Positions 8,571 through 49,238 of a stretch of DNA of 49,238 nucleotides are shown here, one piece after another. Made by a program: the position numbers and the translations under genes. The DNA is from a virus. Its lineage: Duplodnaviria > Heunggongvirae > Uroviricota > Caudoviricetes. The notes under the pieces were generated by a model. That model was not told where the DNA came from. It made no database searches and worked only from the letters and a program-made list of their open reading frames with translations. The stretch's first letter is position 1. The number at the start of each line of letters is the position of its first letter. Where the stretch lies: the IMG/VR virus record IMGVR_UViG_2534681703_000016; one strand, given 5' to 3'.

Positions 8571-8714
8571 AGAGATTTCCTGATTTAACGGTGATATTGA
8601 GAGAGGGTTTTAGCCTGCTGGCAGTGCCGGAAAAAGCGGGACAGCGGGAGAGACAAGGCCCATTCCGGGCCACTTTTCAGAATAACGCCAATCGCTGTCG
8701 CCGCTTTCTCAATA

Positions 8715-9149
8715 TCATTCCGGCACCGCAGCCACTCGCCCCCGTTCTTGCGTCAGCGATGCCGCCACAGCCATGTCGTGCATCTCTGTGGCCAGCGACA
8801 GACGCTGGAAGTCATCGACGGACAGCTTGCGCATCAGCGCCAGCGATAACGGGCCTTTGATGCAGCCCACGCTGGCAATCTGTCGGCGCAGCATTTCCAG
8901 TCCCATCCGGGACGGGGAACTGACCAGCACCGGGCCTTCCTTGCTCATTACCAGCTTTTCAGCCGCCGCCTGGGCATCAATCAGATCGCCTGCGGTCAGT
9001 TCACGCAGTGTCACGTCATACTGCATTTCAGTCTCGTCACCGGTGCCGAACGCCAGGCCGTCTTTCAGTTTCAGGCCACCGGACTGAAGCTCAGCCACAA
9101 TACTGTCACGCAGTTCCTGTGCTTCAGGACTTAAATTCATTTCGTCCAT
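8715..9149 (-). CDS. tail assembly chaperone-like protein (Mu gp41 position)
   Basis: 144-aa acidic ORF between tail tube and tape measure genes. Confidence 0.5.
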   Translation of the reverse strand: MDEMNLSPEAQELRDSIVAELQSGGLKLKDGLAFGTGDETEMQYDVTLRELTAGDLIDAQAAAEKLVMSKEGPVLVSSPSRMGLEMLRRQIASVGCIKGPLSLALMRKLSVDDFQRLSLATEMHDMAVAASLTQERGRVAAVPE

Positions 9150-9524: not shown

Positions 9525-11024
9525 TTACAGAATGAACTGAACTTGTGCCGCGAAAATGCGGAACTGGTTAATCAGATTCGGGCCGCACAGCACATCAAGA
9601 CGGTCTTTGTCGTCCTTGTTACGTGCCACATACAGCTCCTCTTTGAACGTGTCGAAATCCTCGACCAGTCCGGCGTTTTCCCATTCTTCAAACAGTGCCA
9701 GCAGCTCCGTTTTGATCACGGATGGCGTCACCACGGCCTGACCGGTGGCAAAGCGGGTGCCATCACTTGCCAGCTTGTGGTTCGGGAATTTCTGCGTGAT
9801 GCGGGTTCGCAGCGAATAACGCAGATAACTCAGCGTGGCGATGGTATTCACGTTCAGATAAGACGGATCGCTGTCACCGTACTTGTTCGTGCGGTACATC
9901 GTGATCATGCGTTCAATCTGCATTTCACCACCATCATTCACGTTAAACGTGGAGATGCCGTCAAACAGCAGCGCATTACGTTCTGACCAGGTGAAACGAT
10001 CCCCCACCGCAGGCGGCATTCTTCCGGGCAACGTCAGCGTCTGGAGTGGACGCGCCGGGTCGATGGAAAGCGCCTGGCTGGCAACGGCACACAGGGTGGC
10101 GGCGTACAGATATGACGGTTCCGGTGCACCGGCAATCCCCATACAGGAAATCAGATGGTCATTACGTCTGACACCAAACGTGGAAATATCCCCATACGTG
10201 CCGGACAGCACTGTCACGGCAAAGCCATCAGCCTGACTGACCGGTCCCCAGCGTTCCTGCAATTCAGTGCGTAACAGATTCAGGTTCGGTTCATCGGTAT
10301 AGGGCATCACAATATATTTGTATTGCAGATCGCCCATTCCCGCGATACTTGCGCTGATATCCGGGTTGATGTATTTCCGGGATTCGGCTTTGAATGCCGT
10401 GATAATCCCGTAAGGGGTGGTTTCACCCGCGTAATAGTTCCAGCGCACATCCACGGCAGATAATGCACCCGTAAATTTTGCAGTCAGAACTATATCTGTA
10501 GCGCCGGCATCATCCGGCGTGGTTGAGAGCAATACTGCCTTCACCGGCAAATCAGGATGACCGTTGATTCGGTCAGTCAGCAGGCCAGCCAGCTTCGATC
10601 CCTTGGTACCTGCTGCGACGGATACCGCCAGTCGCTGACCGGCAATGTAAGTCACAAGCGAGCCGTTTTCGGTTGCCGTTCCTGACAGTGTGATTAAACC
10701 GACAGTAGTTTTAGAGATAGTATTACCGGGGTTTTTCGCCTGCGGAATACACCACAGCTCCGCCACGCGGTTAGCTTTCAGGAATGCATCTGCCATCAGT
10801 GCCAGCATGGAACCCTGACCAAACGCCGCACTGGCCTGTGAGCCGGAACGGATACGGACAGGCACGTCTGGTGCCGCACTGGCCCCCTTATTGCTTTGCC
10901 CGAACATCAGCACGCGCTGACGGGGGGCCGGTGTTCCGCTGACGGCATTACTGTTATCAAATTCGATATACGCCAGAGGAACGCGAACATCTGGCGGGAT
11001 CGCGTTAAATGAAATATCGCTCAT
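9525..11024 (-). CDS. contractile tail sheath protein (Mu L-like)
   Basis: 499-aa ORF; size and position typical of myovirus sheath. Confidence 0.85.
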
Positions 11025-11030
11025 TTCGAT

Positions 11031-11261
11031 TTACTCCGTTTTTTTCAGCGCAGCGTCGGTATCATCCGCCGTGTTTTCGGTGCTCCCGACTTCAACCACA
11101 TCAGTGTTTTCGGTGCTCCCGACTTCAACCACATCACCGGCTACAAGGCGACGTATCCAGAAACTGTTACGGGGCTTTTCTTCTCCCTCAGGCGCCAGTA
11201 ATTCCATCGTGAGCGGGTCACGGATGGTTTTTCCCTCTGCGGGTTTAATTTTCAGCATCAT
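11031..11261 (-). CDS. small head-tail region protein carrying an in-frame 11-aa tandem duplication
   Basis: 76-aa ORF; perfect 33-bp tandem repeat at 11071-11103 and 11104-11136 encodes VVEVGSTENTD twice. Confidence 0.5.
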   Translation of the reverse strand: MMLKIKPAEGKTIRDPLTMELLAPEGEEKPRNSFWIRRLVAGDVVEVGSTENTDVVEVGSTENTADDTDAALKKTE

Positions 11262-11793
11262 TATCCTTTTCCTGATTCACATTGATATGTGCGGCAAATT
11301 CCGGGGTTTCGGCCGGGAGTTTCCAGGTCTGCCAGTGACGCTCGTAATCATCCAGCGAATCCATGTCCACCACGGACGGCAGCGGGGTAGTGCCACTCAA
11401 CAGAACGCCGTAAAGCACCACGCCGGCATTGATACGGTTGTCGTCACAAAGATTTCTGACCTGCGTCAGTCTCATCCCGGTGGTCTGGCCAAACGTCTGA
11501 CCGTTAACACCGGCAATCAGTCGCTCCACAATCTGATAAATACCGGGCCGGTTTACCGGTTCCCCGTTCAGCAACTCCGCCACGACAAAAAATGCCCAGC
11601 GACTTTCAACTTCCCGACGCGTACGCCCCTCACCACAGCCCATCCATGCCAGAAATACCGATGGCGGGGCCAGAAAGAGACGGTGTACATCCTCGTTAGT
11701 CCATGTGCCGGTAAGGGGTTCCACCTGCCGCAGGGTTGCCCCAAACAACTCACGAACGCGCGCCAGCAGTGCGGCTTCGGTTTCTTCCAGCAT
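11245..11793 (-). CDS. head-tail connector region protein (Mu gp37-like by position)
   Basis: 182-aa ORF, synteny. Confidence 0.5.
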   Translation of the reverse strand: MLEETEAALLARVRELFGATLRQVEPLTGTWTNEDVHRLFLAPPSVFLAWMGCGEGRTRREVESRWAFFVVAELLNGEPVNRPGIYQIVERLIAGVNGQTFGQTTGMRLTQVRNLCDDNRINAGVVLYGVLLSGTTPLPSVVDMDSLDDYERHWQTWKLPAETPEFAAHINVNQEKDNDAEN

Positions 11794-33927: not shown

Positions 33928-35873
33928 CGGCAGGCGATCTGGATTATCGTCACGCTGTTAAATATGTCGCGGTAGGGATACCCGTTACCGGATACCCCCC
34001 GCACAGATCCCGGCGTGCGCGATTTACGCACCGGGCTCCTGCCTCGGGTGTCTGGCGGTGAACCGCTCCACAGGCCATGGATGAAGAACCCGAACCCTTG
34101 GTAGCCATGCGGCTGCCAGTTTGTTTGCTTTCGTCCAGGTCGTATCATCCTTCTGGCTCCTGCGCCTGAGCGCCCGGCGCCAGAGGTTTGTTACGTGTGT
34201 CCTGAACTTCTGCATGGTGGGGAAGTTGCCCGGTACCGAGTGATAGTTCAGGTATCCCTGAACCACTCTCCTGAGCCATTTTCCCTGTTCGGGGATTGAG
34301 TAATGCCAGCGCCTTCGCAGACCGTCTTTGATGGCTTTCAGAGTTGCCGTCATCCGATCCCGGCGGGTCTTTCGTATCAGCATGAACCTGCCGTTGCGAT
34401 CTTTCCCGCTGATGTGCGTGAACCCGAGGAAGTTGAACGTTTCTGGTTTGCCTTTTCCCCTGATGGCACGGTTTTCGGCAGCGAAGCGGCCGAACTCCAT
34501 CAGACGGGTTTTCTCCGGGTGAACCGTGAGTCCGAACTCCCTCAGTCTGCGCTGCATGGCTATACGGAAGCGCCGGGCATCGTATCGTTTGTCGAACCCG
34601 ATGACGATGTCATCGGCGTATCTGACCATTACCACATTGCCTGTGGCATAGCGACGTCGCCACTGATGCGCCCACAGATCGAAGACGTAGTGGAGGTATA
34701 TGTTTGCCAGCAGCGGTGAGATGACCGCACCCTGTGGGGTGCCTTCCTCCGTTGCTCGCCATTGACCCTCCTCCAACGTCCCGGCTGTGAGCCACTTACG
34801 TATGAGCCTGATTACGCTCCGGTCGCCGATCCGATGCTCTGTGAACCTGATCAGCCATTCGTGGCTCACCCTGTCGAAGAACTGACTGATGTCGGCATCC
34901 AGTACCCAGTTTACGTTAGTGCGTACCAGCCCTGTGGCCAGTGCGTCCAGTGCATCGTGCTGGCTTCGCCCGGGTCTGAACCCGTATGAGAACCCCATAA
35001 AGTCGTTTTCATAGACTGCGTTCAGGATTTTCACCAGCGCATACTGGACGATCTTGTCCTCCAGCGAGGCGATGCCGAGCGGGCGTTGTTTTCCATCCGC
35101 TTTTGGGATGTAGTGACGCCTGCCGGGCTGCGCCCTGTAGCTGCCCTAATGTAGCCTCCGGTGCAGATCTGTTATGTTGTTCTTCATGTTTCCGGCGTAG
35201 TCCATCCACCTGATGCCATCCACTCCGGCGGCCGCTTTCCTGCTCAGGGAGAGGAATGCGGCTTCCAGTGCTTCGACTGTCAGCAGGTGGAACAATGCTG
35301 TAAACCGTTCTTTCTTCCGCTGCTTCGCAGCTTCCCGCACGCGTGACAGCCTCTGTGACATGCTTTCCCGGCTCTGTGTCCGGCGCATGTGTGGCTGTTC
35401 CGCGTTCCCCTTGGCCCCGCTCCTTCGCTCCACTGACTCCGCTCCTTTCGGGTTGTTCGCCTGCTTCGCCGCTACTATGAGCGAGTCCGACTTCTCCTCT
35501 CCGTACATCACCGGCTATGACTCCTCGTCTTCCCGGTGCGGGCCGTCTCCGACACTGGCAGATGGTCAGAGGGGAGATCTCCCGGTTCCCGCGTAGAGAT
35601 CGTATTGACATGCCAGGGTCTCAGACCCCGCCGGGTCCATGTGGCACTCGCAGTATCGCACCCTATGATGTTGCCTTCCGTTAACAGTACAACGTCGGCA
35701 CCCGGTAATTTAATATACATTTCGTGGCTCAATGGCTGGCCTGTCAACACCCCTGTCAACGCTTCGCCCCATACCTCGCGGTATGCAACGCATGACTCGG
35801 GGACCTTGTGGATTGCTGGTCCTTCAATGGTCGGGGACTTTCACCCCTTGATCTCTACCGGTCTCCCGGTGAG
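33928..35873 (-). mobile_element. group II intron (boundaries approximate)
   Basis: RT/maturase ORF flanked by about 0.1 kb of 3' and about 0.4 kb of 5' non-coding structured sequence; abuts IS1 at the 3' side and the umuDC SOS box at the 5' side. Confidence 0.5.
34024..35511 (-). pseudogene. group II intron reverse transcriptase/maturase interrupted by a single in-frame amber codon
   Basis: ORFs 35146..35511 and 34024..35034 are in the same frame, separated by TAG at 35146-35148; read-through gives continuous RT motifs (AAGVDGI..., RPLGI, YADD, FLGF, maturase X domain). Confidence 0.75.
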
Positions 35874-35893
35874 CACTGTATGTATAACCAGTA
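35874..35893 (+). promoter_or_regulatory. LexA (SOS) box upstream of umuD
   Basis: CACTGTATGTATAACCAGTA, 16/20 match to TACTGTATATATATACAGTA with CTG-N10-CAG core, 24 bp upstream of the umuD ATG. Confidence 0.6.
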
Positions 35894-35916
35894 AAATTAG
35901 AGTGTCAGGAGGAAAG

Positions 35917-36348
35917 ATGAAACTACAACTTTTCAGCACCGGGAAAGAACTCCCGCCACAGGCCCATCCATTGTTTGCCGATCTGGCCAGCTGCGGTTTT
36001 CCCAGCCCTGCTGCTGACTATGTCGAGTCCGATCTGGATCTCCATGATTACTGCATACGGCATCCGAGCGCGACGTACTACCTGCGTGCCAGCGGAGACA
36101 GCATGGCCGACGGCAGTCTGTACAATGGCGATCTGCTGGTTGTGGACAGTGCTGAAAAGCCGCGGCACGGCGATATCGTTGTCGCCAGCATGCAGGGGGA
36201 GTTTACGGTGAAACGGCTTCTGCTGACGCCGCGACTGACGCTGCAGCCCATGAATGCCTCCTGGTCGCCGATTTATCCTGATCCCGACGAGCTGGATATC
36301 TTTGGCGTCGTCACGCATATCATCCACCGCCCGAGGGAGATGTACTGA
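35917..36348 (+). CDS. umuD: UmuD-like SOS mutagenesis protein (LexA-type S24 peptidase)
   Basis: ORF 35536..36348; ATG at 35917 after GGAGGAAAG; translation ...[12 protein letters not shown]...[18 protein letters not shown]...GEFTVKRL... closely parallels E. coli UmuD. Confidence 0.9.
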
Positions 36349-37619
36349 TGTTTGCCCTGGCCGATGTGAACAGCTTCTATGCCAGCTGTGAACGTGTTTT
36401 CCGCCCGGATTTGAAAGGAAAGCCGATAGTCGTCCTGAGCAACAACGACGGGAATGTAATCGCTCGCAGTGCCGAGGCGAAGCCCTGGATCAAAATGGAA
36501 ACTCCGTGGTTTCAGATAAAAAACGAAAGATACCCGGAAAAAATATATGCGTTTTCAAGTAACTATGAACTTTATGCCTCGATGTTGGCGCGCGTGATGA
36601 ACAGCCTGGAGGAACTGGCCCCCAGAGTGGAACAGTATTCAATTGATGAGATGTTCCTCGATTTGACCGGCGTGGAGCACTGTATGGAGCTTGAGGACTT
36701 CGGCCGGCAGCTGCGTCAGCACGTGTATGACTGTACCCACCTGACCATTGGCGTGGGCGCCGGACCAACGAAGACCCTCGCAAAATCAGCCCAGTGGGCC
36801 TCAAAAGAGTGGAAACAGTTTCGTGGCGTACTTGCTCTGACCAGGGGAAATCCGCAGAGAACGCGGAAACTGCTTTCACTGCAGCCGGTTGAAGAAATCT
36901 GGGGGGTGGGTAACCGTATTGCACGCAAGCTGAATGTACTGGGCATTAAGACCGCGCTCGATCTCGCCCTGACGAACCCGGCCTTCATCCGCAAAAATTT
37001 TTCTGTGGTCCTTGAGCGAACGGTACGGGAACTGAACGGGGAAAGCTGCCTTTCGCTTGAGGAAGCCCCTCCGACGAAACAGCAAATTGTCTGCAGCCGC
37101 AGTTTTGGCGTGAAGATCACGGAGTACGAGTCACTCCGTCAGGCTATCTGTCAGCACGCAGAGCGGGCCTCTGAAAAACTGCGTAAAGAGCACCAGTATT
37201 GCCGGCATATTTCCGTTTTCATCAAAACGTCTCCGTTCGCCATTAAAGAGCCTTACTACGGCAACGTGGCTACGGAAAAACTTCTTACACCCACTCAGGA
37301 CACCAGGGACATCATTGCAGCCGCTACAACGGCTCTGGAGCGTATCTGGAGGGATGGGCACCGGTATGCCAAAGCCGGAGTTATGCTGAATGACTTCACC
37401 GGCTCCGGCGTTTCGCAGCTGCAGCTGTTCGACGAACGCCCGCCACGCCCTTACAGTGCTGAGCTGATGAAGGTTCTGGACGGGATCAACAACTCAGGGC
37501 TGGGTAAAGTATGGTTTGCGGGGCGGGGTATTGCCCCGGAATGGCAGATGAAACGGGAGATGCTTTCTCCTGCTTATACGACACGATGGTCAGATATTCC
37601 TTCAGCGAAACTGGCGTAA
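36348..37619 (+). CDS. umuC: UmuC-like Y-family DNA polymerase V catalytic subunit
   Basis: 423-aa [44 protein letters not shown]... parallels E. coli UmuC; ATGA-type coupling to umuD. Confidence 0.92.
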
Positions 37620-40272: not shown

Positions 40273-40690
40273 CTGTGGGAAACAGGTCAACTTTAATGGA
40301 CGCTCCGGACTATGGGAAACAGGTCAACTTCGCGGACGGCCCGGACTATGGGAAACAGGTCAACTTCACGGGCGGCCGGGAGTGTGGGGAACAGGTCAAC
40401 TTCGCGGACGGCCCGGATTATGGGAAACAGGTCAACTTCGCGGGCGGCCGGGACTGTGGGAAACAGGTCAACTTTGCAGACGGCCCGGACTGTGGGAAAC
40501 AGGTCAACTTCGCGGGCGGCCGGGAGTGTGGGGAACAGGTCAACTTCGCGGACGGCCCGGACTAAGGGAAACAGGTCAGCTTCTCGGACGGCCCGGACTA
40601 TGGGAAACAGGTCAACTTCTCGGACGGTCGGGAGTGTGGGAAACAGGTCAAGTTAGGCAAGCACTATGGGAAACACAGCAAGTTCAGTAT
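40273..40690. repeat. iteron array, 11 copies of a 36-37-bp direct repeat plus one degenerate copy (incA/incC-like copy control)
   Basis: core TGGGAAACAGGTCAAC recurs at 40277, 40313, 40350, 40385, 40422, 40458, 40494, 40530, 40565, 40601, 40637; no unique spacers. Confidence 0.85.
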
Positions 40691-40741
40691 CCCCCCATAT
40701 GTCAGCAACAAACTAAGGGGGGAGGAAATAAAAATTACAGA

Positions 40742-42370: not shown

Positions 42371-42628
42371 ATGAAACTTGAAACTATACAGATAGATAAT
42401 ACCGTAAGGAGTGGTCTTAATTCTTTCACTGACGGGGTGATTATTCGTGATACAAAGGTATTGATCACGCTCAATCTCCCGGATGGACAGAAAACCACTA
42501 TTGAGGGGGAATGGCGGCATATGTCGGACGCCAACAGGTTGTCAGAACGTATTACGATGCTTCAGCATGCGATCTATGAGCAGTATGAAGAATACAGAGC
42601 AGATATTCCCGTCAGCTGGTCCAGATAA
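42371..42628 (+). CDS. hypothetical 85-aa protein
   Basis: ORF 42338..42628; ATG at 42371 preceded by AGGAGG; convergent with recombinase gene. Confidence 0.5.
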   Translation: MKLETIQIDNTVRSGLNSFTDGVIIRDTKVLITLNLPDGQKTTIEGEWRHMSDANRLSERITMLQHAIYEQYEEYRADIPVSWSR

Positions 42629-42685: not shown

Positions 42686-43462
42686 TTAAATATTCCCTTT
42701 CAGCATGGCTACCGCATCCGCTTCGGGCATCTGAAACTGAACTCGATGCCGCGCAGCAACATCAAGTGCGAACACCTTCGTATAGACTTCCGTCGAGCTA
42801 ATCGATTTGTGGCCCATCAGGCTCTGCAAAACCTTCAGTGGTATGCCGGCATACAGCATATGCATCGCGTAGGAGTGGCGGAACGTATGCGGGGTGACCG
42901 GCACCGAGAATGTCACCCCGTCGACGGCGGCCGCTTCAACCGCTTCGCCAATCCAGGTCCGTACTGTCCGGTCGGTGATGTCCCAGATGCGGGCTTTCTC
43001 TGTTCTGCCGGTACGCTTGTTGCGTCTTTCCAGCGGAATTTTCAGGGTGGCCACCATCATCTGCAGCTGGCTGACGTAGTGGTGATCGGAAAGCGGAACC
43101 AGACGATGAGCCTGGCTACCGGCGGGAGCTCGGCCGGCTGTCCTGGCCGCTTTTTCGGTGCGCTGCTTAAGCGTGGCCAGCTGCACGAACGGATACGGTG
43201 GCACCAGCGAAAAATCCCCCCGGGTCAGCGCCAGCGCCTCGTTGATACGTGCGCCGGTGTTCCAGAGGGTTGCCAGCAGCATCTTGCGGTGCAAATCGGG
43301 CACATAATGGAGCAGGGCGCTGACTTCCGGTGCCAGCAGGTATTTCGGTAGTTCATCTTGAACGAGCGCCATCTGGCGCAGGGCCAGCGCGGCGGGATAG
43401 TCAATGGCCACCGGCATTTGCGCCGGCTGCTGCGGGTGAGAATATGATAAGAGGCCGCTCAT
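42686..43462 (-). CDS. tyrosine-type site-specific recombinase
   Basis: 258-aa ORF with C-terminal catalytic signature ...HTFRHSYAMHMLYAGIPLKVLQSLMGHKSISSTEVYTKV (H-x-x-R-H ... Y). Confidence 0.8.
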   Translation of the reverse strand: MSGLLSYSHPQQPAQMPVAIDYPAALALRQMALVQDELPKYLLAPEVSALLHYVPDLHRKMLLATLWNTGARINEALALTRGDFSLVPPYPFVQLATLKQRTEKAARTAGRAPAGSQAHRLVPLSDHHYVSQLQMMVATLKIPLERRNKRTGRTEKARIWDITDRTVRTWIGEAVEAAAVDGVTFSVPVTPHTFRHSYAMHMLYAGIPLKVLQSLMGHKSISSTEVYTKVFALDVAARHRVQFQMPEADAVAMLKGNI

Positions 43463-44202
43463 TGGTTTGACATTCCATCAGGTATCACTAATTGATTCCA
43501 CTCCCTGTTGCGGGTAGCTTCAGCAGCGCGCAGGGCTCTTTCGCGCCTCCAGACTTTACGAAACACGGAAACTGCAGACCATTCATCATGACCTGTAAGA
43601 CGTGTTTCGGGCATCCCGGTTGCCTTGCGCAGACGGACGGCAAGAATGACAGCGTTGATGCCCAAGCGCGTGAACTGATACTGCCGTTCCCTGAAATAGT
43701 CCTTATGCCAAGGAGGGTCGGAGTATTCGGCGGCATATGCAATTGCCCTGTGGGCCTCATCCTGGAGCACCGGCAGTTCACGGATGCGATACATAAGACG
43801 TGGCTCTAAAGTCCGCCAGTCACCGGAGACATCGATCAGATTCAGTTCAGGGTAATTCGTGACAGCTTTTCTCTCAGGCTGGGGGGCATCATCATCCTGG
43901 CCGTCATCCGTCACAACCCGGAAACAACCCTCAGCATACCGTTCAAGCATGAATACCAACTCGGTGGCAATGTAATGCAGTTCCTTTTTCATTTTATCTT
44001 CTGACGCCTGTCTCTCACGCTTAAGCGTGAAATAATGTGTCAGCCAGATGCCAGTGAGTGTTATACCCCCAGTAAGCAGGCCAGTGATAAGCCCGGTTGC
44101 CACGTTTCCCCAGATCCCCGCCCCTTGATTAATCAGCTGTACGGAAACCGGATGGGATGTCGCAGCAACTATACTCTCAGTTGCGGCCTGTATATCAGTC
44201 AT
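43459..44202 (-). CDS. membrane-anchored hypothetical protein, translationally coupled to the recombinase
   Basis: 247-aa ORF; N-terminal TM segment GIWGNVATGLITGLLTGGITLTGIWLTHYF; stop overlaps recombinase ATG (ATGA). Confidence 0.55.
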   Translation of the reverse strand: MTDIQAATESIVAATSHPVSVQLINQGAGIWGNVATGLITGLLTGGITLTGIWLTHYFTLKRERQASEDKMKKELHYIATELVFMLERYAEGCFRVVTDDGQDDDAPQPERKAVTNYPELNLIDVSGDWRTLEPRLMYRIRELPVLQDEAHRAIAYAAEYSDPPWHKDYFRERQYQFTRLGINAVILAVRLRKATGMPETRLTGHDEWSAVSVFRKVWRRERALRAAEATRNREWNQLVIPDGMSNQ

Positions 44203-44252
44203 TGATCATTTACCCCTTTATATTCCTGAGAAATCCCGCCCTCTGTCCGTAG

Positions 44253-44603
44253 TCAGCGGCCGGCAGCCAGCTCTTCAGCCAGTTTCACAAACCTTTTGTG
44301 CTCAGTCTGCAGGTAATGGCTGTAAATCCGGGCATCACGTTCTGTCAGTCCGGATGGATTGCCGGTGAAGTAACGTTGCAGCACCGCAATACAGTGATTG
44401 TAGGTATCGAGATCATATTCCCAGTTTCCCAGCTCACCGGCCGCATCCAGTTCCTGGCGAAACTGCTCGTATTTACGGAGCAGAATGCCAAGACCTAATT
44501 CTGTTGCAGCATAAAGATTATTTTCTCCTGGCGCGGAAATCGCATTACGGATTTTTTCAAAAGCATAACTGAAATCATTTCTCTCATTGAATGCAGTAAA
44601 CAT
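44253..44603 (-). CDS. hypothetical 116-aa protein, first gene of the recombinase operon
   Basis: ORF with ATG start 50 bp upstream of the membrane protein gene. Confidence 0.5.
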   Translation of the reverse strand: MFTAFNERNDFSYAFEKIRNAISAPGENNLYAATELGLGILLRKYEQFRQELDAAGELGNWEYDLDTYNHCIAVLQRYFTGNPSGLTERDARIYSHYLQTEHKRFVKLAEELAAGR

Positions 44604-45176
44604 GTCCTTTCCTCAGTTGAATAGTTAGCCGTGCAATTTTACCACACCTCAATCATCGTCAGATGAGTGCCACTCTGTCGTGACAGTGACTTTCACTAGA
44701 GTGATTTTCACATACTAAAATAATAAGCAGCCATATAACAACGTAATTAAATTACCTGACGGCCGCTCTGGCCGGATCCGACTTTTATGTTATTCCACAG
44801 TTTCCGGAAGTGTACCACGCACACGGAATAACCACAGCGCCCTTTCAGGGTGGTGAGCGGCCGGTCACGGGGCAGGGGAGGGACACAACATATATGGTCA
44901 CTGACAGCTGGAAACACCGCTACATCTTGTGTTTCCGGGCCGCTGCGCGCCGGCGGGGCTGAATCAGATCCGGAACTGCCTTTTTTCGGATCTGAGCGGG
45001 AAAAGTGAGAAACCAACATAGGTGTAACATATCCATATGCCGGGCATCTGCATAGGCAAAGCATACGCATATACCTACCATCTGCATATGTAACACCTAT
45101 ACAAGCCGGGCTTGCAGGCATATACTTCACCTATGCGGGAATACTCCCTGGCACACTCAGCATATGAGGAAAAACC

Positions 45177-45820: not shown

Positions 45821-45965
45821 TCCCGTAATAATTTCCGTGACGGAGACGACAGACATGAATGGGCTTTGTTGAATAAATCGAACTTTTGCTGAGTTGAAGG
45901 ATCAGATCACGCATCCTCCCGACTGGATTTGCCCCTATATTTCCAGACACCTGTTATCACTTAAT

Positions 45966-46063: not shown

Positions 46064-46348
46064 ATGGGCACATCACGTTTTACCCCTGAATTTAAGGAAG
46101 AGGCCGTCCGCCAGATCACCGAGCGGGGCTATTCTATTGCTGAAGTATCTGAACGGCTCGGCGTGTCGGCGCACAGCCTATATAAATGGCTCCGGGCTGT
46201 TAAGCCTGACAACAGTGGACAGCAGGCACAGGATTTACTGGATGCCAGAACAGAAATTCTCAGGCTGAAAGCACAGCTTAAACGCACTGAGGAAGAGCGG
46301 GATATTCTGAAAAAGGCAGCGCGGTACTTTGCAAGGGAGCCCGACTGA
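46064..46348 (+). CDS. IS3-family transposase OrfA (HTH)
   Basis: 94-aa ORF ...TPEFKEEAVRQITERGYSIAEVSERLGVSAHSLYKW... with leucine-zipper-like C-terminus. Confidence 0.85.
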   Translation: MGTSRFTPEFKEEAVRQITERGYSIAEVSERLGVSAHSLYKWLRAVKPDNSGQQAQDLLDARTEILRLKAQLKRTEEERDILKKAARYFAREPD

Positions 46349-46395
46349 AGTATCGCTTTATCAACGATCACCGTGAAATCTGGTCGATCGTTACA

Positions 46396-46750
46396 ATGTG
46401 TCGGGTCCTTAAGGTTGCCCGTGCCGGATTTTATGTCTGGCTCCATAACCCTGTATCTGCCGGAGAAAAGGATAACCAGCGACTGCTGGAACTCATCCGC
46501 GACTCCTATACGCTGAGTGGTGGAGTTTACGGTTATCGCAGGGTTCATGGCGATCTTCGCGAAATTGGCGAAGTGTGCAGCAGAAACCGGGTTGCCAAAA
46601 TCATGAGGAAAAACAGGATTCAGGCTATACATGGTTATAAAGTGCCACGCGGGAGCCGGGGACGACCGTCACTGATAGCGCCTAATCACGTGCGGCGTGA
46701 ATTTACTGTAGTGAAGCCCAATCAGGTGTGGGTCACCGACATCACCTACA
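46396..46750 (+). pseudogene. IS3-family transposase OrfB, N-terminal part, interrupted after ...NQVWVTDITY by a group II intron
   Basis: ORF 46396..46815 in -1 frame relative to OrfA; coding similarity ends at 46750 where GTGTG intron 5' end begins. Confidence 0.7.
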
Positions 46751-48438
46751 GTGTGCCCGGAGTTCAGGGCGGGCATGGATGCTTAAATGAACCGCGAGTC
46801 TGTCTGGAATATTGAACCGGTAACTCACGATGAGAAACCCAACAATCCCACCGGGTGTGACGGTGGAGAACCTGAGCGGCAGTGACCTGCGGCATGCCCG
46901 CAGGGTGATGTAACCCGCTGACAACGGGGATTGAGGCGAGATCACTAAGCCGAGATGATCCTCAAGGTTAAGTACTGAAAGGCTGAAGAACATGAACCCG
47001 TTAATCCGCCTCTGTGGGTTGAAAACGTCACCACGGCCTACGTGATCTGACAGGCCGTGCAGGAGGAACTGGCAGTGATACGTAAGCACTGCCGGTCGAA
47101 GGTGTTTTGACATGTATGCGAAACACCGGGGCAGCAGCGTCTATCACGCTTGCGTTGCTGACTTCTGCCAACTTGCGGCAAGCAAGGATAAAGAGTGCGA
47201 CGGGCAGCCTCCTCAGTATGCCTGAGTCCAGGCAGGTAAACCGGGGAAGGTCAGCGACGGATGTTAAGGGGGCATGGCTCCGATGACGCGCTGGCTGGCG
47301 GAGCTTCCGTAGTAGTCCGCGATGGGGAAAGCCCATTACATGGCGAAGGGAAGCAGTTTGAATGTGTTTGCGACGTGAATTAACTGACCTAACGAGGTGA
47401 AGACCTTTGATAATCAGCGAAATGCAACGCAAGCTTGCCACATGGGCAGCCACCGATCCGTCCCTACGGATTCAACGGCTGCTGCGTCTGATAACACAAC
47501 CAGAATGGCTGGCTGAAGCGGCGCGGATCACGCTTTCATCAAAGGGGGCGCATACCCCCGGCGTTGATGGCGTGAACAAAACAATGCTACAGGCCAGACT
47601 GGCTGTTGAGCTGCAAATCCTCAGGGATGAATTACTCTCAGGCCACTACCAGCCCTTGCCCGCCAGACGGGTTTACATCCCTAAAAGCAACGGCAAACTG
47701 CGACCACTGGGTATCCCCGCGTTGCGGGATCGTATTGTTCAGCGGGCCATGCTGATGGCGATGGAGCCGATATGGGAGAGTGATTTTCATACGCTCTCAT
47801 ATGGCTTCCGGCCTGAGCGCAGTGTCCACCACGCGATCCGCACGGTGAAATTACAGCTCACAGACTGCGGTGAAACCCGGGGACGCTGGGTGATTGAAGG
47901 CGACCTGTCCAGTTACTTCGACACCGTACATCATCGACTGCTGATGAAGGCTGTACGCCGCAGGATCAGTGACGCACGTTTCATGACTCTGCTGTGGAAA
48001 ACCATCAAGGCGGGACATATCGATGTCGGTCTCTTTCGGGCGGCCAGTGAAGGTGTGCCACAGGGCGGTGTTATATCGCCGCTATTATCGAACATCATGC
48101 TGAATGAGTTCGATCAATACCTGCATGAGCGCTACCTGAGCGGGAAAGCCAGAAAAGATCGGTGGTACTGGAATAACAGTATCCAACGGGGCCGAAGTAC
48201 GGCGGTCAGAGAAAACTGGCAGTGGAAACCCGCGGTGGCGTACTGCCGCTATGCCGATGATTTTGTCCCCATCGTCAAAGGCACCAAAGCACAGGCGGAA
48301 GCCATCAGGGAGGAGTGTCGGGGTGTGCTCGAAGGCAGTCTGAAACTCAGGCTGAACATGGATAAGACTAAAATCACCCATGTTAATGACGGCTTTATCT
48401 TTCTGGGGCACAGGATCATTCGCAAACGCAGTCGTTAT
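46751..48438 (+). mobile_element. group II intron, 5' part (domains I-IV with RT ORF), 3' end removed by IS26
   Basis: begins GTGTG at 46751 inside IS3 orfB; about 650 nt structured RNA then RT ORF; terminated by the IS26 inverted repeat at 48439. Confidence 0.7.
47407..48438 (+). pseudogene. group II intron reverse transcriptase, C-terminally truncated by IS26
   Basis: ORF 47407..48465 with ...TPGVDGV..., ...RPLGIPALRDRIVQ..., YADD, FLGH motifs; last 9 codons (GTVANSRW) are IS26 sequence; maturase domain missing. Confidence 0.8.
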
Positions 48439-49238
48439 GGCACTGTTGCAAATAGTCGGTGGTGATAAACTTATCATCCCCTTTTGCTGATGGAGCTGCA
48501 CATGAACCCATTCAAAGGCCGGCATTTTCAGCGTGACATCATTCTGTGGGCCGTACGCTGGTACTGCAAATACGGCATCAGTTACCGTGAGCTGCAGGAG
48601 ATGCTGGCTGAACGCGGAGTGAATGTCGATCACTCCACGATTTACCGCTGGGTTCAGCGTTATGCGCCTGAAATGGAAAAACGGCTGCGCTGGTACTGGC
48701 GTAACCCTTCCGATCTTTGCCCGTGGCACATGGATGAAACCTACGTGAAGGTCAATGGCCGCTGGGCGTATCTGTACCGGGCCGTCGACAGCCGGGGCCG
48801 CACTGTCGATTTTTATCTCTCCTCCCGTCGTAACAGCAAAGCTGCATACCGGTTTCTGGGTAAAATCCTCAACAACGTGAAGAAGTGGCAGATCCCGCGA
48901 TTCATCAACACGGATAAAGCGCCCGCCTATGGTCGCGCGCTTGCTCTGCTCAAACGCGAAGGCCGGTGCCCGTCTGACGTTGAACACCGACAGATTAAGT
49001 ACCGGAACAACGTGATTGAATGCGATCATGGCAAACTGAAACGGATAATCGGCGCCACGCTGGGATTTAAATCCATGAAGACGGCTTACGCCACCATCAA
49101 AGGTATTGAGGTGATGCGTGCACTACGCAAAGGCCAGGCCTCAGCATTTTATATGGTGATCCCCTGGGCGAAATGCGCCTGGTAAGCAGAGTTTTTGAAA
49201 TGTAAGGCCTTTGAATAAGACAAAAGCTGCCTCATCGC
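48439..49238 (+). mobile_element. IS26 copy 2, same orientation as copy 1, running off the window end (last ~20 bp missing)
   Basis: left inverted repeat GGCACTGTTGCAAA at 48439-48452; interior matches copy 1 except for three small differences. Confidence 0.95.
48502..49185 (+). CDS. tnpA: IS26 transposase Tnp26, altered C-terminus from a 1-nt difference near the 3' end
   Basis: ORF 48484..49185 identical to copy 1 until ...KGQASAFY, then frame changes (TTTTATATGG versus TTTTATTATGG in copy 1). Confidence 0.85.
   Translation: MNPFKGRHFQRDIILWAVRWYCKYGISYRELQEMLAERGVNVDHSTIYRWVQRYAPEMEKRLRWYWRNPSDLCPWHMDETYVKVNGRWAYLYRAVDSRGRTVDFYLSSRRNSKAAYRFLGKILNNVKKWQIPRFINTDKAPAYGRALALLKREGRCPSDVEHRQIKYRNNVIECDHGKLKRIIGATLGFKSMKTAYATIKGIEVMRALRKGQASAFYMVIPWAKCAW

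Follow-up and report, generated by a model that had tools for sequence, protein, structure and literature searches.

A variable passenger-cassette slot in the rfsF–resD operon of an IncR resistance plasmid backbone and its putative conflict cassette

Introduction

The stretch of DNA considered here (hereafter the window; 49,238 nt, IMG/VR record IMGVR_UViG_2534681703_000016, filed as a virus of the class Caudoviricetes) carries on its minus strand three closely spaced genes encoding a 116-aa protein (p116), a 247-aa protein (p247) and a tyrosine recombinase, ResD, whose start codon overlaps the stop codon of the gene before it. Such an arrangement raises the question of what the two proteins encoded ahead of the recombinase are for, namely, whether they assist or regulate recombination or are passengers in the operon of a plasmid resolvase. 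Comparative analysis showed that the position held by ccdA and ccdB in the F-type ccd–resD operon is a variable passenger-cassette slot. With moderate confidence, the trio is interpreted as a ResD locus in which p116 and p247 make up a passenger conflict cassette co-transcribed with the resolvase, and not as a recombinase accompanied by its helpers.

Organization of the Locus and Its Plasmid Source

According to the list of open reading frames (ORFs) and the sequence itself, p116 is the first gene of the trio (44603..44253, minus strand, 116 aa), p247 is the middle gene (44202..43459, minus strand, 247 aa) and resD is the last one (43462..42686, minus strand, 258 aa). The first two genes are separated by 50 bp, whereas the stop codon of p247 and the ATG of resD share a 4-bp ATGA overlap at 43459..43462 on the minus strand (TCAT on the plus strand). 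The array, the spacing and the overlap described in the first-pass annotation were thereby confirmed, and the probable single operon proposed there is borne out by the gene layout; no intrinsic terminator was predicted on the coding strand inside the trio. The three ORFs are real genes and not chance ORFs, since the 3.2-kb region containing them is covered by at least 80% in 861 plasmids of PLSDB and the AlphaFold models are confident.

The same 3.2-kb region was 99.8–99.9% identical to hundreds of IncR-typed plasmids of Klebsiella, E. coli, Enterobacter and Salmonella, in which the trio is currently annotated only as two hypothetical proteins and an integrase. The window also encodes RepB with 36-bp iterons, vapBC (vagCD) and a group II intron reverse transcriptase, and ORFs whose sizes suit parAB and umuCD lie where these genes are found in the near-identical plasmid L002 (loci fetched for comparison are designated by L numbers). 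In the published IncR backbone, the recombinase is named resD, its site rfsF and the whole the rfsF–resD system (PMC9412624, PMC12310702). With repB and its iterons, parAB, umuCD, vagCD and retA counted as support, the window is the backbone of an IncR resistance plasmid, and the locus is its rfsF–resD multimer-resolution system. A phage origin was also considered and rejected: no nucleotide match was found in the phage collection, although PHROG families exist for all three small proteins.

Residues 41–230 of ResD correspond to the Pfam domain Phage_integrase (E-value = 2.3 × 10−18), and a separate N-terminal core-binding domain is absent. Comparison with ResD of the F plasmid revealed 224 identical residues out of 244 (92%, E-value = 3 × 10−168). 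The conserved catalytic residues R...HxxR...H...Y are present, the HxxR...GH...Y motifs align with the structures of XerC/XerD, and the motifs GARINE, HTFRHS, GHKS and EVYTKV are visible in the sequence; the first ~15 residues are the variable part of the family, with conserved sequence beginning from about residue 12–16. By sequence, ResD is assigned as an F-type tyrosine recombinase, that is, a plasmid multimer resolvase orthologous to ResD of F, and its earlier identification as a plasmid multimer-resolution recombinase is supported by both the domain and the similarity to the F protein. ResD-dependent dimer resolution at rfsF has been established for F only (as cited in PMC4398462; bioRxiv 10.1101/2024.03.26.585537). 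By analogy with this orthologue, ResD of the IncR plasmid would recombine the two directly repeated rfsF sites of a plasmid dimer, yielding monomers.

It should be noted that the F plasmid (L045) has a second ResD-like recombinase, 47% identical, at 35618–36358 beside the RepFIB initiator, and that a second ResD paralogue or fragment was also detected in loci L014, L019, L022 and L024.

Variable Slot between rfsF and resD

The contents of the interval between rfsF and resD were assessed in two samples, one assembled through p247 and the other through ResD. The p247-led sample comprised 28 genomic loci, of which 24 were from Enterobacterales. A ResD homologue was found downstream on the same strand in 22 of these 24 loci, and in 20 it was directly downstream. 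The ResD proteins of the p247-led loci were 65–94% identical, whereas p247 itself was only about 40–56% identical. The ResD-led sample consisted of nine ResD matches opened from an evenly spaced sample of PLSDB, eight of which were informative: p116 and p247 were present in only one of the eight plasmids, and ResD occurred without p247 in seven.

In the sampled PLSDB plasmids, ResD proteins with 86–93% identity to that of the window follow unrelated genes. These other occupants of the place before resD included a gene for a 334-aa C-terminally hydrophobic protein, 217-aa and 144-aa orphans, ccdAB with a 104-aa gene after it, and genes for HEPN-like proteins of 273 and 256/259 aa, which contain an RNxLVH motif and weakly match HEPN_RiboL-PSP. 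Searches of these other cassette proteins against Pfam and PADLOC gave only the weak HEPN_RiboL-PSP hint, in the 273-aa protein. In PLSDB as a whole, ResD was found in at least 5000 plasmids, a p247 relative in 1954 and a p116 relative in 1607; a near-identical p247 was present in about 950 IncR-type plasmids, and a divergent relative in about 1000 more. The first gene varies too, p116 being replaced by loosely related proteins of ~100 aa (BLAST links some of them only, and the rest were grouped by eye on common motifs) or by a cysteine-rich small protein.

The trio is kept as a unit in IncR plasmids and also in ColV-type IncFIB plasmids, there with a divergent middle gene. Between the window and one such ColV-type plasmid (L041, NZ_MW390538), the DNA is 88% identical from the leader through p116, no identity is detectable across p247, and identity returns at 81% sixteen codons into resD; at the protein level, the identity is 96.6% for p116, 33% for p247 and 90% for ResD. 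For comparison, the corresponding values for p116 and p247 of L014 are 54% and 50%. The middle gene is a sharply bounded hypervariable segment between conserved flanks, and the ccdAB position of the F-type ccd–resD operon is a slot for variable passenger cassettes. Cassettes have probably been swapped by recombination in the conserved flanks, that is, in rfsF, the leader or the first gene on one side and in resD on the other. In the searchable literature, no paper was found that treats the rfsF–resD slot as a hypervariable cassette site or a defence hotspot, nor was there any on the IncR or ColV occupants of the slot as members of PDC-S67 (see below) or on the RefSeq protein accessions.

Several individual loci are of interest in themselves. 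The segment that differs between the window (43414–44209) and L041 (3393–4141) loses similarity at the p247 start codon and regains it after the first sixteen codons of resD, so that the variable N-terminal end of ResD is part of the swapped segment. In the Leclercia loci L007 (8735–9908) and L008 (8741–10021), two extra genes of ~137 aa and 223–275 aa, with no family assigned, separate the p247 relative from the ResD homologue, so the slot is able to hold more than two genes. Locus L013 of Pectobacterium betavasculorum (8707–8967 and 10080–11360) contains a small gene and a p247 relative, after which come what is left of a ResD N-terminus (86 aa) and then a 426-aa ORF that by eye is P4-type integrase-like; it looks like a plasmid cassette that now resides in a chromosomal island. 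In Citrobacter braakii L023 (7773–8747), the leader, which keeps 81% identity across 226 nt, runs straight into a p247 relative beginning at residue 62, giving a 277-aa fusion ORF with no resD downstream, that is, a rearranged or decayed copy.

rfsF Site, Leader and Expression of resD

An rfsF-type core site (44963..44996, strand not set), a 12-8-12 inverted repeat composed of TCAGATCCGGAA, 8 nt and TTTCGGATCTGA, was found ~360 bp upstream of p116. The pattern occurs just once in the window (shuffled sequence would be expected to give 0 matches), and no second full rfsF site was found there; a relaxed half-site scan also matched CACTTCCGGAA at 44802–44812 in the leader. The F plasmid carries the same arms at NC_002483 45922–45949, in exact agreement with the published statement that two rfsF sites open RepFIA at F nt 45922 (PMC4398462). 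In a relaxed search, 17 distinct loci with ResD, not counting the window, each had one copy of rfsF ahead of the cassette; the arms were kept and the spacer varied, as would be expected where crossover takes place. With a single site in the window, the cassette is not flanked by sites, which does not fit its inversion or excision, while one rfsF per plasmid fits dimer resolution.

The arms AGATCCGnAA and TTnCGGATCT were conserved across the IncR, IncF, IncI-gamma and pLVPK-like plasmids (loci L001–L045). Meanwhile, the 8-nt spacers differed among plasmids (for example, AAAGGCAG, ACCCCAAG, ACTCCTGG and AATACCAG), and the type of spacer could define which plasmids recombine together at rfsF.

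The interval from rfsF to p116 (44604..44962, minus strand) is a conserved non-coding leader homologous to the F interval between rfsF/oriV1 and ccdA. It has conserved blocks in common with the pifC–ccdA intergenic region of F and is 69–82% identical in many other ResD loci; a search for structured RNA in the leader gave no credible Rfam match. The leader presumably holds the operon promoter, for which a possible extended −10 element, TGGTAAAAT, was read by hand at 44636..44644 (minus strand), ~33 nt upstream of the p116 ATG; a putative ribosome-binding site, GAGGAAAG, likewise read by hand, lies between this element and p116.

The premise that plasmid resolvases mostly stand alone turned out to be wrong for the ResD family. 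In F, the genes ccdA, ccdB and resD follow one another directly, the start of resD being one base past the stop codon of ccdB. In pSLT, ccdAB-PSLT029-PSLT030-rsdB-PSLT032 was found by reverse transcription PCR (RT-PCR) to be a single six-gene operon in which rsdB, encoding a ResD homologue, is the fifth gene, and the level of RsdB depends on the ccd promoter, falling upon its deletion (PMC5065971). Coupling of resD to upstream genes is the norm for the family, as follows from the contiguity in F and from the RT-PCR data on pSLT. The identical 4-bp overlap is annotated between resD and unrelated upstream genes in L033, L038, L041, L043 and L044. In the IncR plasmid, resD would accordingly be the last gene on a transcript starting in the conserved leader beside rfsF; we infer this co-transcription from the gene spacing, the lack of terminators and the pSLT precedent.

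Between rfsF and the start of vapB, there is a cluster of dense imperfect direct and inverted repeats (45017–45136), including a 40-nt palindrome-like pair (45018–45057 and 45061–45100). As a candidate ResD site it was rejected: the cluster travels with vapBC, whereas F shares the repeat at 44963–44996. The cluster is 80–82% conserved along with vapBC in Pantoea and Mixta loci (L009–L011) and for this reason is probably the vapBC promoter/operator.

Properties of p247 and p116

The p247 protein matches the PADLOC profile PDC-S67 (E-value = 3.6 × 10−45, 151.9 bits; profile positions 6–195 of 203, protein residues 47–236). The same profile is matched by the ColV-type p247 allele (WP_000796228; E-value = 1.2 × 10−17), by a Stenotrophomonas member (E-value = 9.4 × 10−56) and by distant betaproteobacterial members (E-value of about 1 × 10−75). 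With respect to the latter, p247 represents a divergent enterobacterial plasmid branch with 25–30% identity. A profile search of 1.84 billion representatives yielded 933 clusters in the p247 family. The best 150 of these 933 clusters were about 86–256 aa long, mostly 165–256 aa, and had essentially one matched stretch each, so that no large domain fusions are evident among them. Residue W129 is invariant in the family, and L86, C93, P118, G181 and R192 are nearly invariant.

A transmembrane helix is predicted at approximately residues 29–57 of p247 (codons 44032..44118, minus strand) from hydropathy and the positive-inside rule. This segment is rich in glycine and threonine, and its hydropathy is borderline, with a Kyte–Doolittle 19-residue maximum of 1.54 at residues 34–52. 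The single N-terminal transmembrane helix of the first-pass annotation is plausible, and a hydrophobic segment is kept throughout the family. No lysine or arginine is present in residues 1–30, while six are present in residues 58–75, just after the helix, which suggests an N-out/C-in topology. The AlphaFold predicted local distance difference test (pLDDT) score was at least 87 in most 10-residue blocks of residues 51–230, with two blocks at 73–82, and in the model one long helix runs on from the membrane into a cytoplasmic helical bundle. As modelled, p247 probably spans the membrane once, in N-out/C-in orientation, and carries a four-helix bundle on the cytoplasmic side.

The p116 protein is acidic (isoelectric point (pI) 5.35) and was modelled by AlphaFold as a four-helix bundle (pLDDT 93.6). 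It belongs to an orphan family confined, among the named matches, to Enterobacterales. The analysis suggests that p116 serves as a small partner or regulator in the cytoplasm and that it is only loosely tied to p247, because the two genes assort independently. The earlier view that the 247-aa and 116-aa proteins belong to no characterised family held up: no family was found for either of them in Pfam or NCBIfam, nor did Pfam recognise any of 44 members of the p247 family, and the fold searches returned only generic helical bundles for both proteins.

Conflict-Cassette Interpretation and Its Alternatives

The interpretation of p116 and p247 as a conflict cassette draws on the membership of p247 in PDC-S67 and on genomic neighbourhood. 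Twelve loci with distant p247 relatives were looked up singly. Directly upstream of such relatives were found AbiGi (54 bp away), an FRG/PDC-S15 protein and an HNH-motif protein (motif identified by eye), the last of these in the vicinity of DUF4365 and of a P4-type integrase. PD-Lambda-4_A lay directly downstream, an AbiU-like AIPR protein was one gene off, past a recombinase, and a PycTM gene was within a few kb. The p247 relatives of Stenotrophomonas sit between housekeeping-like genes, as judged by eye from ORF translations, and in the window the neighbours of p247 are plasmid-stability genes. Beyond rfsF, on the side away from the cassette, anti-phage genes are often found, namely, pifC and an adjoining P-loop NTPase gene in F, as well as genes annotated as ‘anti-phage transmembrane ATPase’ or ‘abortive infection family protein’ and a gene for an S-4TM effector in other enterobacterial plasmids.

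According to the conflict-cassette interpretation, p247 would be the membrane-anchored effector of a system of abortive infection, phage defence or post-segregational killing, with its bundle facing the cytoplasm, and p116 would be a separate small cytoplasmic partner or regulator. The place of the cassette in the resD transcript would tie its expression to a plasmid-stability operon, as is the case for ccdAB in F and pSLT. The suggested conflict role of the two proteins, deduced from an unvalidated candidate family and from neighbourhood, is the weakest part of the argument.

Several observations weigh against this interpretation. PDC-S67 is a single-gene PADLOC candidate family; neither a mention of it nor a published test of phage protection was found in the searchable literature. 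With only generic helical bundles returned by the fold searches, p116 and p247 alike show no resemblance to a known toxin, antitoxin or nuclease. The p116 protein does not co-vary with p247 (97% versus 33% identity in L041), and the ~100-aa group of first-gene products precedes p247 relatives, an HEPN-like protein or a third family, both of which are unlike a tight toxin–antitoxin pair. A consensus scan of the coding strand upstream of p116 found no good match to a sigma-70 promoter and no good −35 element, and both the promoter and co-transcription in the IncR plasmid are deduced from layout and precedent. Finally, distant p247 relatives adjoin recombinases, namely, ResD-like proteins (43% and 79% identity), a small serine resolvase, a large serine recombinase and phage-type integrases. 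This adjacency could reflect a functional link and is the main evidence for an accessory role in recombination; here it is taken to mean that such genes lie among the cargo at the edge of mobile elements. Still other p247 relatives have no recombinase adjacent to them.

A bolder form of the conflict-cassette interpretation, put forward tentatively and as a possibility only, is that the rfsF–resD locus is a dedicated platform for the exchange of conflict genes. In this case, one crossover at rfsF or in the leader and another in resD would swap a hypervariable two-gene cassette (ccdAB, HEPN-like, PDC-S67 and others) that would always be expressed from the resolvase operon. In the same scheme, p247 would be a novel effector of abortive infection or addiction, anchored in the membrane and able to work with one or another upstream partner (p116, the ~100-aa family, AbiGi, FRG or HNH proteins).

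It is rather unlikely that p116 and p247 are a classical toxin–antitoxin pair that has replaced ccdAB, with p116 as the antitoxin and p247 as the membrane toxin. Their position and the order of a small gene followed by a larger one are the same as those of ccdA–ccdB in F, p116 is small, acidic and cytoplasmic, and p247 has a membrane helix, its N-terminus weakly matching the holin family phrog_4237 (E-value = 0.013). Moreover, AbiGi, which opens the two-gene AbiG abortive-infection pair, precedes one distant p247 relative, and vapBC and other stability genes cluster at the locus. However, the two genes assort independently with no co-variation, and the ~100-aa first-gene family is paired not only with p247 but also with HEPN-like proteins and a third family, whereas distant p247 relatives are often single genes with no small partner. 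The p116 protein lacks a DNA-binding domain of the antitoxin type, and no toxin or antitoxin family was found for p116 or p247 in PADLOC, Pfam or NCBIfam; neither recognisable domains nor partners that diverge together were thus observed.

The first-pass annotation had proposed the membrane protein as a possible accessory or regulator of recombination, an explanation that we regard as improbable. Under it, p247, with or without p116, would tether ResD to the membrane or time its action, as FtsK does for XerCD, or would control directionality. The translational coupling through the ATGA overlap between p247 and resD, the ResD homologues that follow p247 relatives in 22 of the 24 Enterobacterales loci found through p247, the recombinases of three families adjoining distant relatives and the absence of an N-terminal core-binding domain from ResD are all in its favour. 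Meanwhile, ResD proteins that are 86–93% identical are coupled to unrelated genes, sometimes by the same 4-bp overlap, and F, in which ResD/rfsF resolution was defined, contains no p247 or p116 homologue: a search of its six-frame translation with profile hidden Markov models of both families gave none at E ≤ 10. Nor is a recombinase present within the 4–8 kb fetched on each side of several p247 relatives of Stenotrophomonas, Burkholderia and Paraburkholderia (L028–L030, L055, L059 and L060). Co-occurrence of p247 and a recombinase is not obligate in either direction, the two proteins show no co-evolution (90% identity for ResD versus 33% for p247 in L041), and no DNA-binding or recombinase-interacting fold was found in p247. 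Taken together, the unrelated genes before ResD, the lack of homologues in F, the p247 loci without a recombinase and the discordant identities leave the accessory role unsupported.

The last explanation, that p116 is a detached SAM-like core-binding domain supplying in trans what the short ResD lacks, can be practically dismissed: residues 66–103 of p116 weakly match Phage_int_SAM_4 (Pfam; E-value = 0.024, 15.5 bits), its four-helix bundle is about the right size and the catalytic domain of ResD begins at residue 41, but the match is far under the curated 27-bit cut-off with no structural match besides, ResD of F and many others do without p116, unrelated small proteins replace it in many ResD loci, and its acidity (pI 5.35) is unlike that of a DNA-binding domain.

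Other Features of the Window

Convergent to resD lies a conserved hypothetical gene (42371–42628, plus strand, 85 aa, phrog_31850), which goes together with the IncR repB even in L032, whose resD cassette differs. The gene belongs to the replicon and not to the cassette, because L032 keeps it beside repB despite the other cassette. At 40275–40700, the 36-bp RepB iterons yield three overlapping repetitive ORFs (96–142 aa) in all three plus-strand frames, which are repeat artefacts and not genes. Downstream of vapBC, an IS3-family transposase pair (split orfA/orfB) and the group II intron reverse transcriptase (IncR retA) were identified at 46064–46815 and 47407–48465, respectively.

Comparison with Known Systems and Significance

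The closest known system is ccdA-ccdB-resD/rfsF of F (RepFIA, with ResD or ‘D protein’), which has the same order as the locus in the window, namely, the site, the leader, two genes and an abutting resD. The two loci have the same rfsF arms, homologous leaders and 92% identical recombinases, and both lie beside the gene of a replication initiator, repE in F and repB in the window. In contrast, the window has two unrelated genes in place of ccdA and ccdB, one for an orphan four-helix bundle and the other for a PDC-S67 protein anchored in the membrane; the rfsF spacer is CTGCCTTT in the window and CTTGGGGT in F, in the same orientation, and the first 11–21 residues of ResD differ. The pSLT operon resembles the locus in having a ResD-family resolvase gene in a distal position behind small uncharacterised ORFs of a polycistronic operon, co-transcription being experimental in pSLT (PMC5065971). 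It differs in that ccdAB leads and the other small ORFs are different ones, p116 and p247 relatives not being shown there.

PDC-S67 is linked to p247 by the profile match and has distant members among defence genes on mobile elements. However, it is defined as a single gene, whereas the p247 gene shares a resolvase operon with a small partner gene lying ahead of it. In Tn3-family transposons, toxin–antitoxin pairs lie beside the res site and the resolvase gene and can be controlled by resolvase-site promoters (PMC7157771); there, as is proposed for the window, a conflict or stability cassette directly adjoins a site-specific resolution module. Unlike the plasmid ResD of the window, the resolvases of these transposons are transposon serine or tyrosine enzymes, and their cassettes belong to recognisable toxin–antitoxin families (ParE, PIN, Gp49 and HEPN), which p116 and p247 do not. 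Thus, the recombinase, rfsF and the logic of the operon are already known; relative to the searchable literature, the ccdAB position as a hypervariable slot and the placement of its IncR and ColV occupants in PDC-S67 appear to be new.

In Klebsiella and E. coli, plasmids of the IncR and IncF types are major vehicles of antibiotic resistance; hence, their stability determinants are of practical interest. Should the cassette have no phenotype, the locus would simply be a resolvase operon of the usual kind, with two orphan genes along as hitch-hikers. If, on the other hand, it is an addiction or anti-phage module, it would represent a new effector family and would point to a reason for wiring such modules to resolvase expression, echoing the toxin–antitoxin pairs of Tn3-family transposons.

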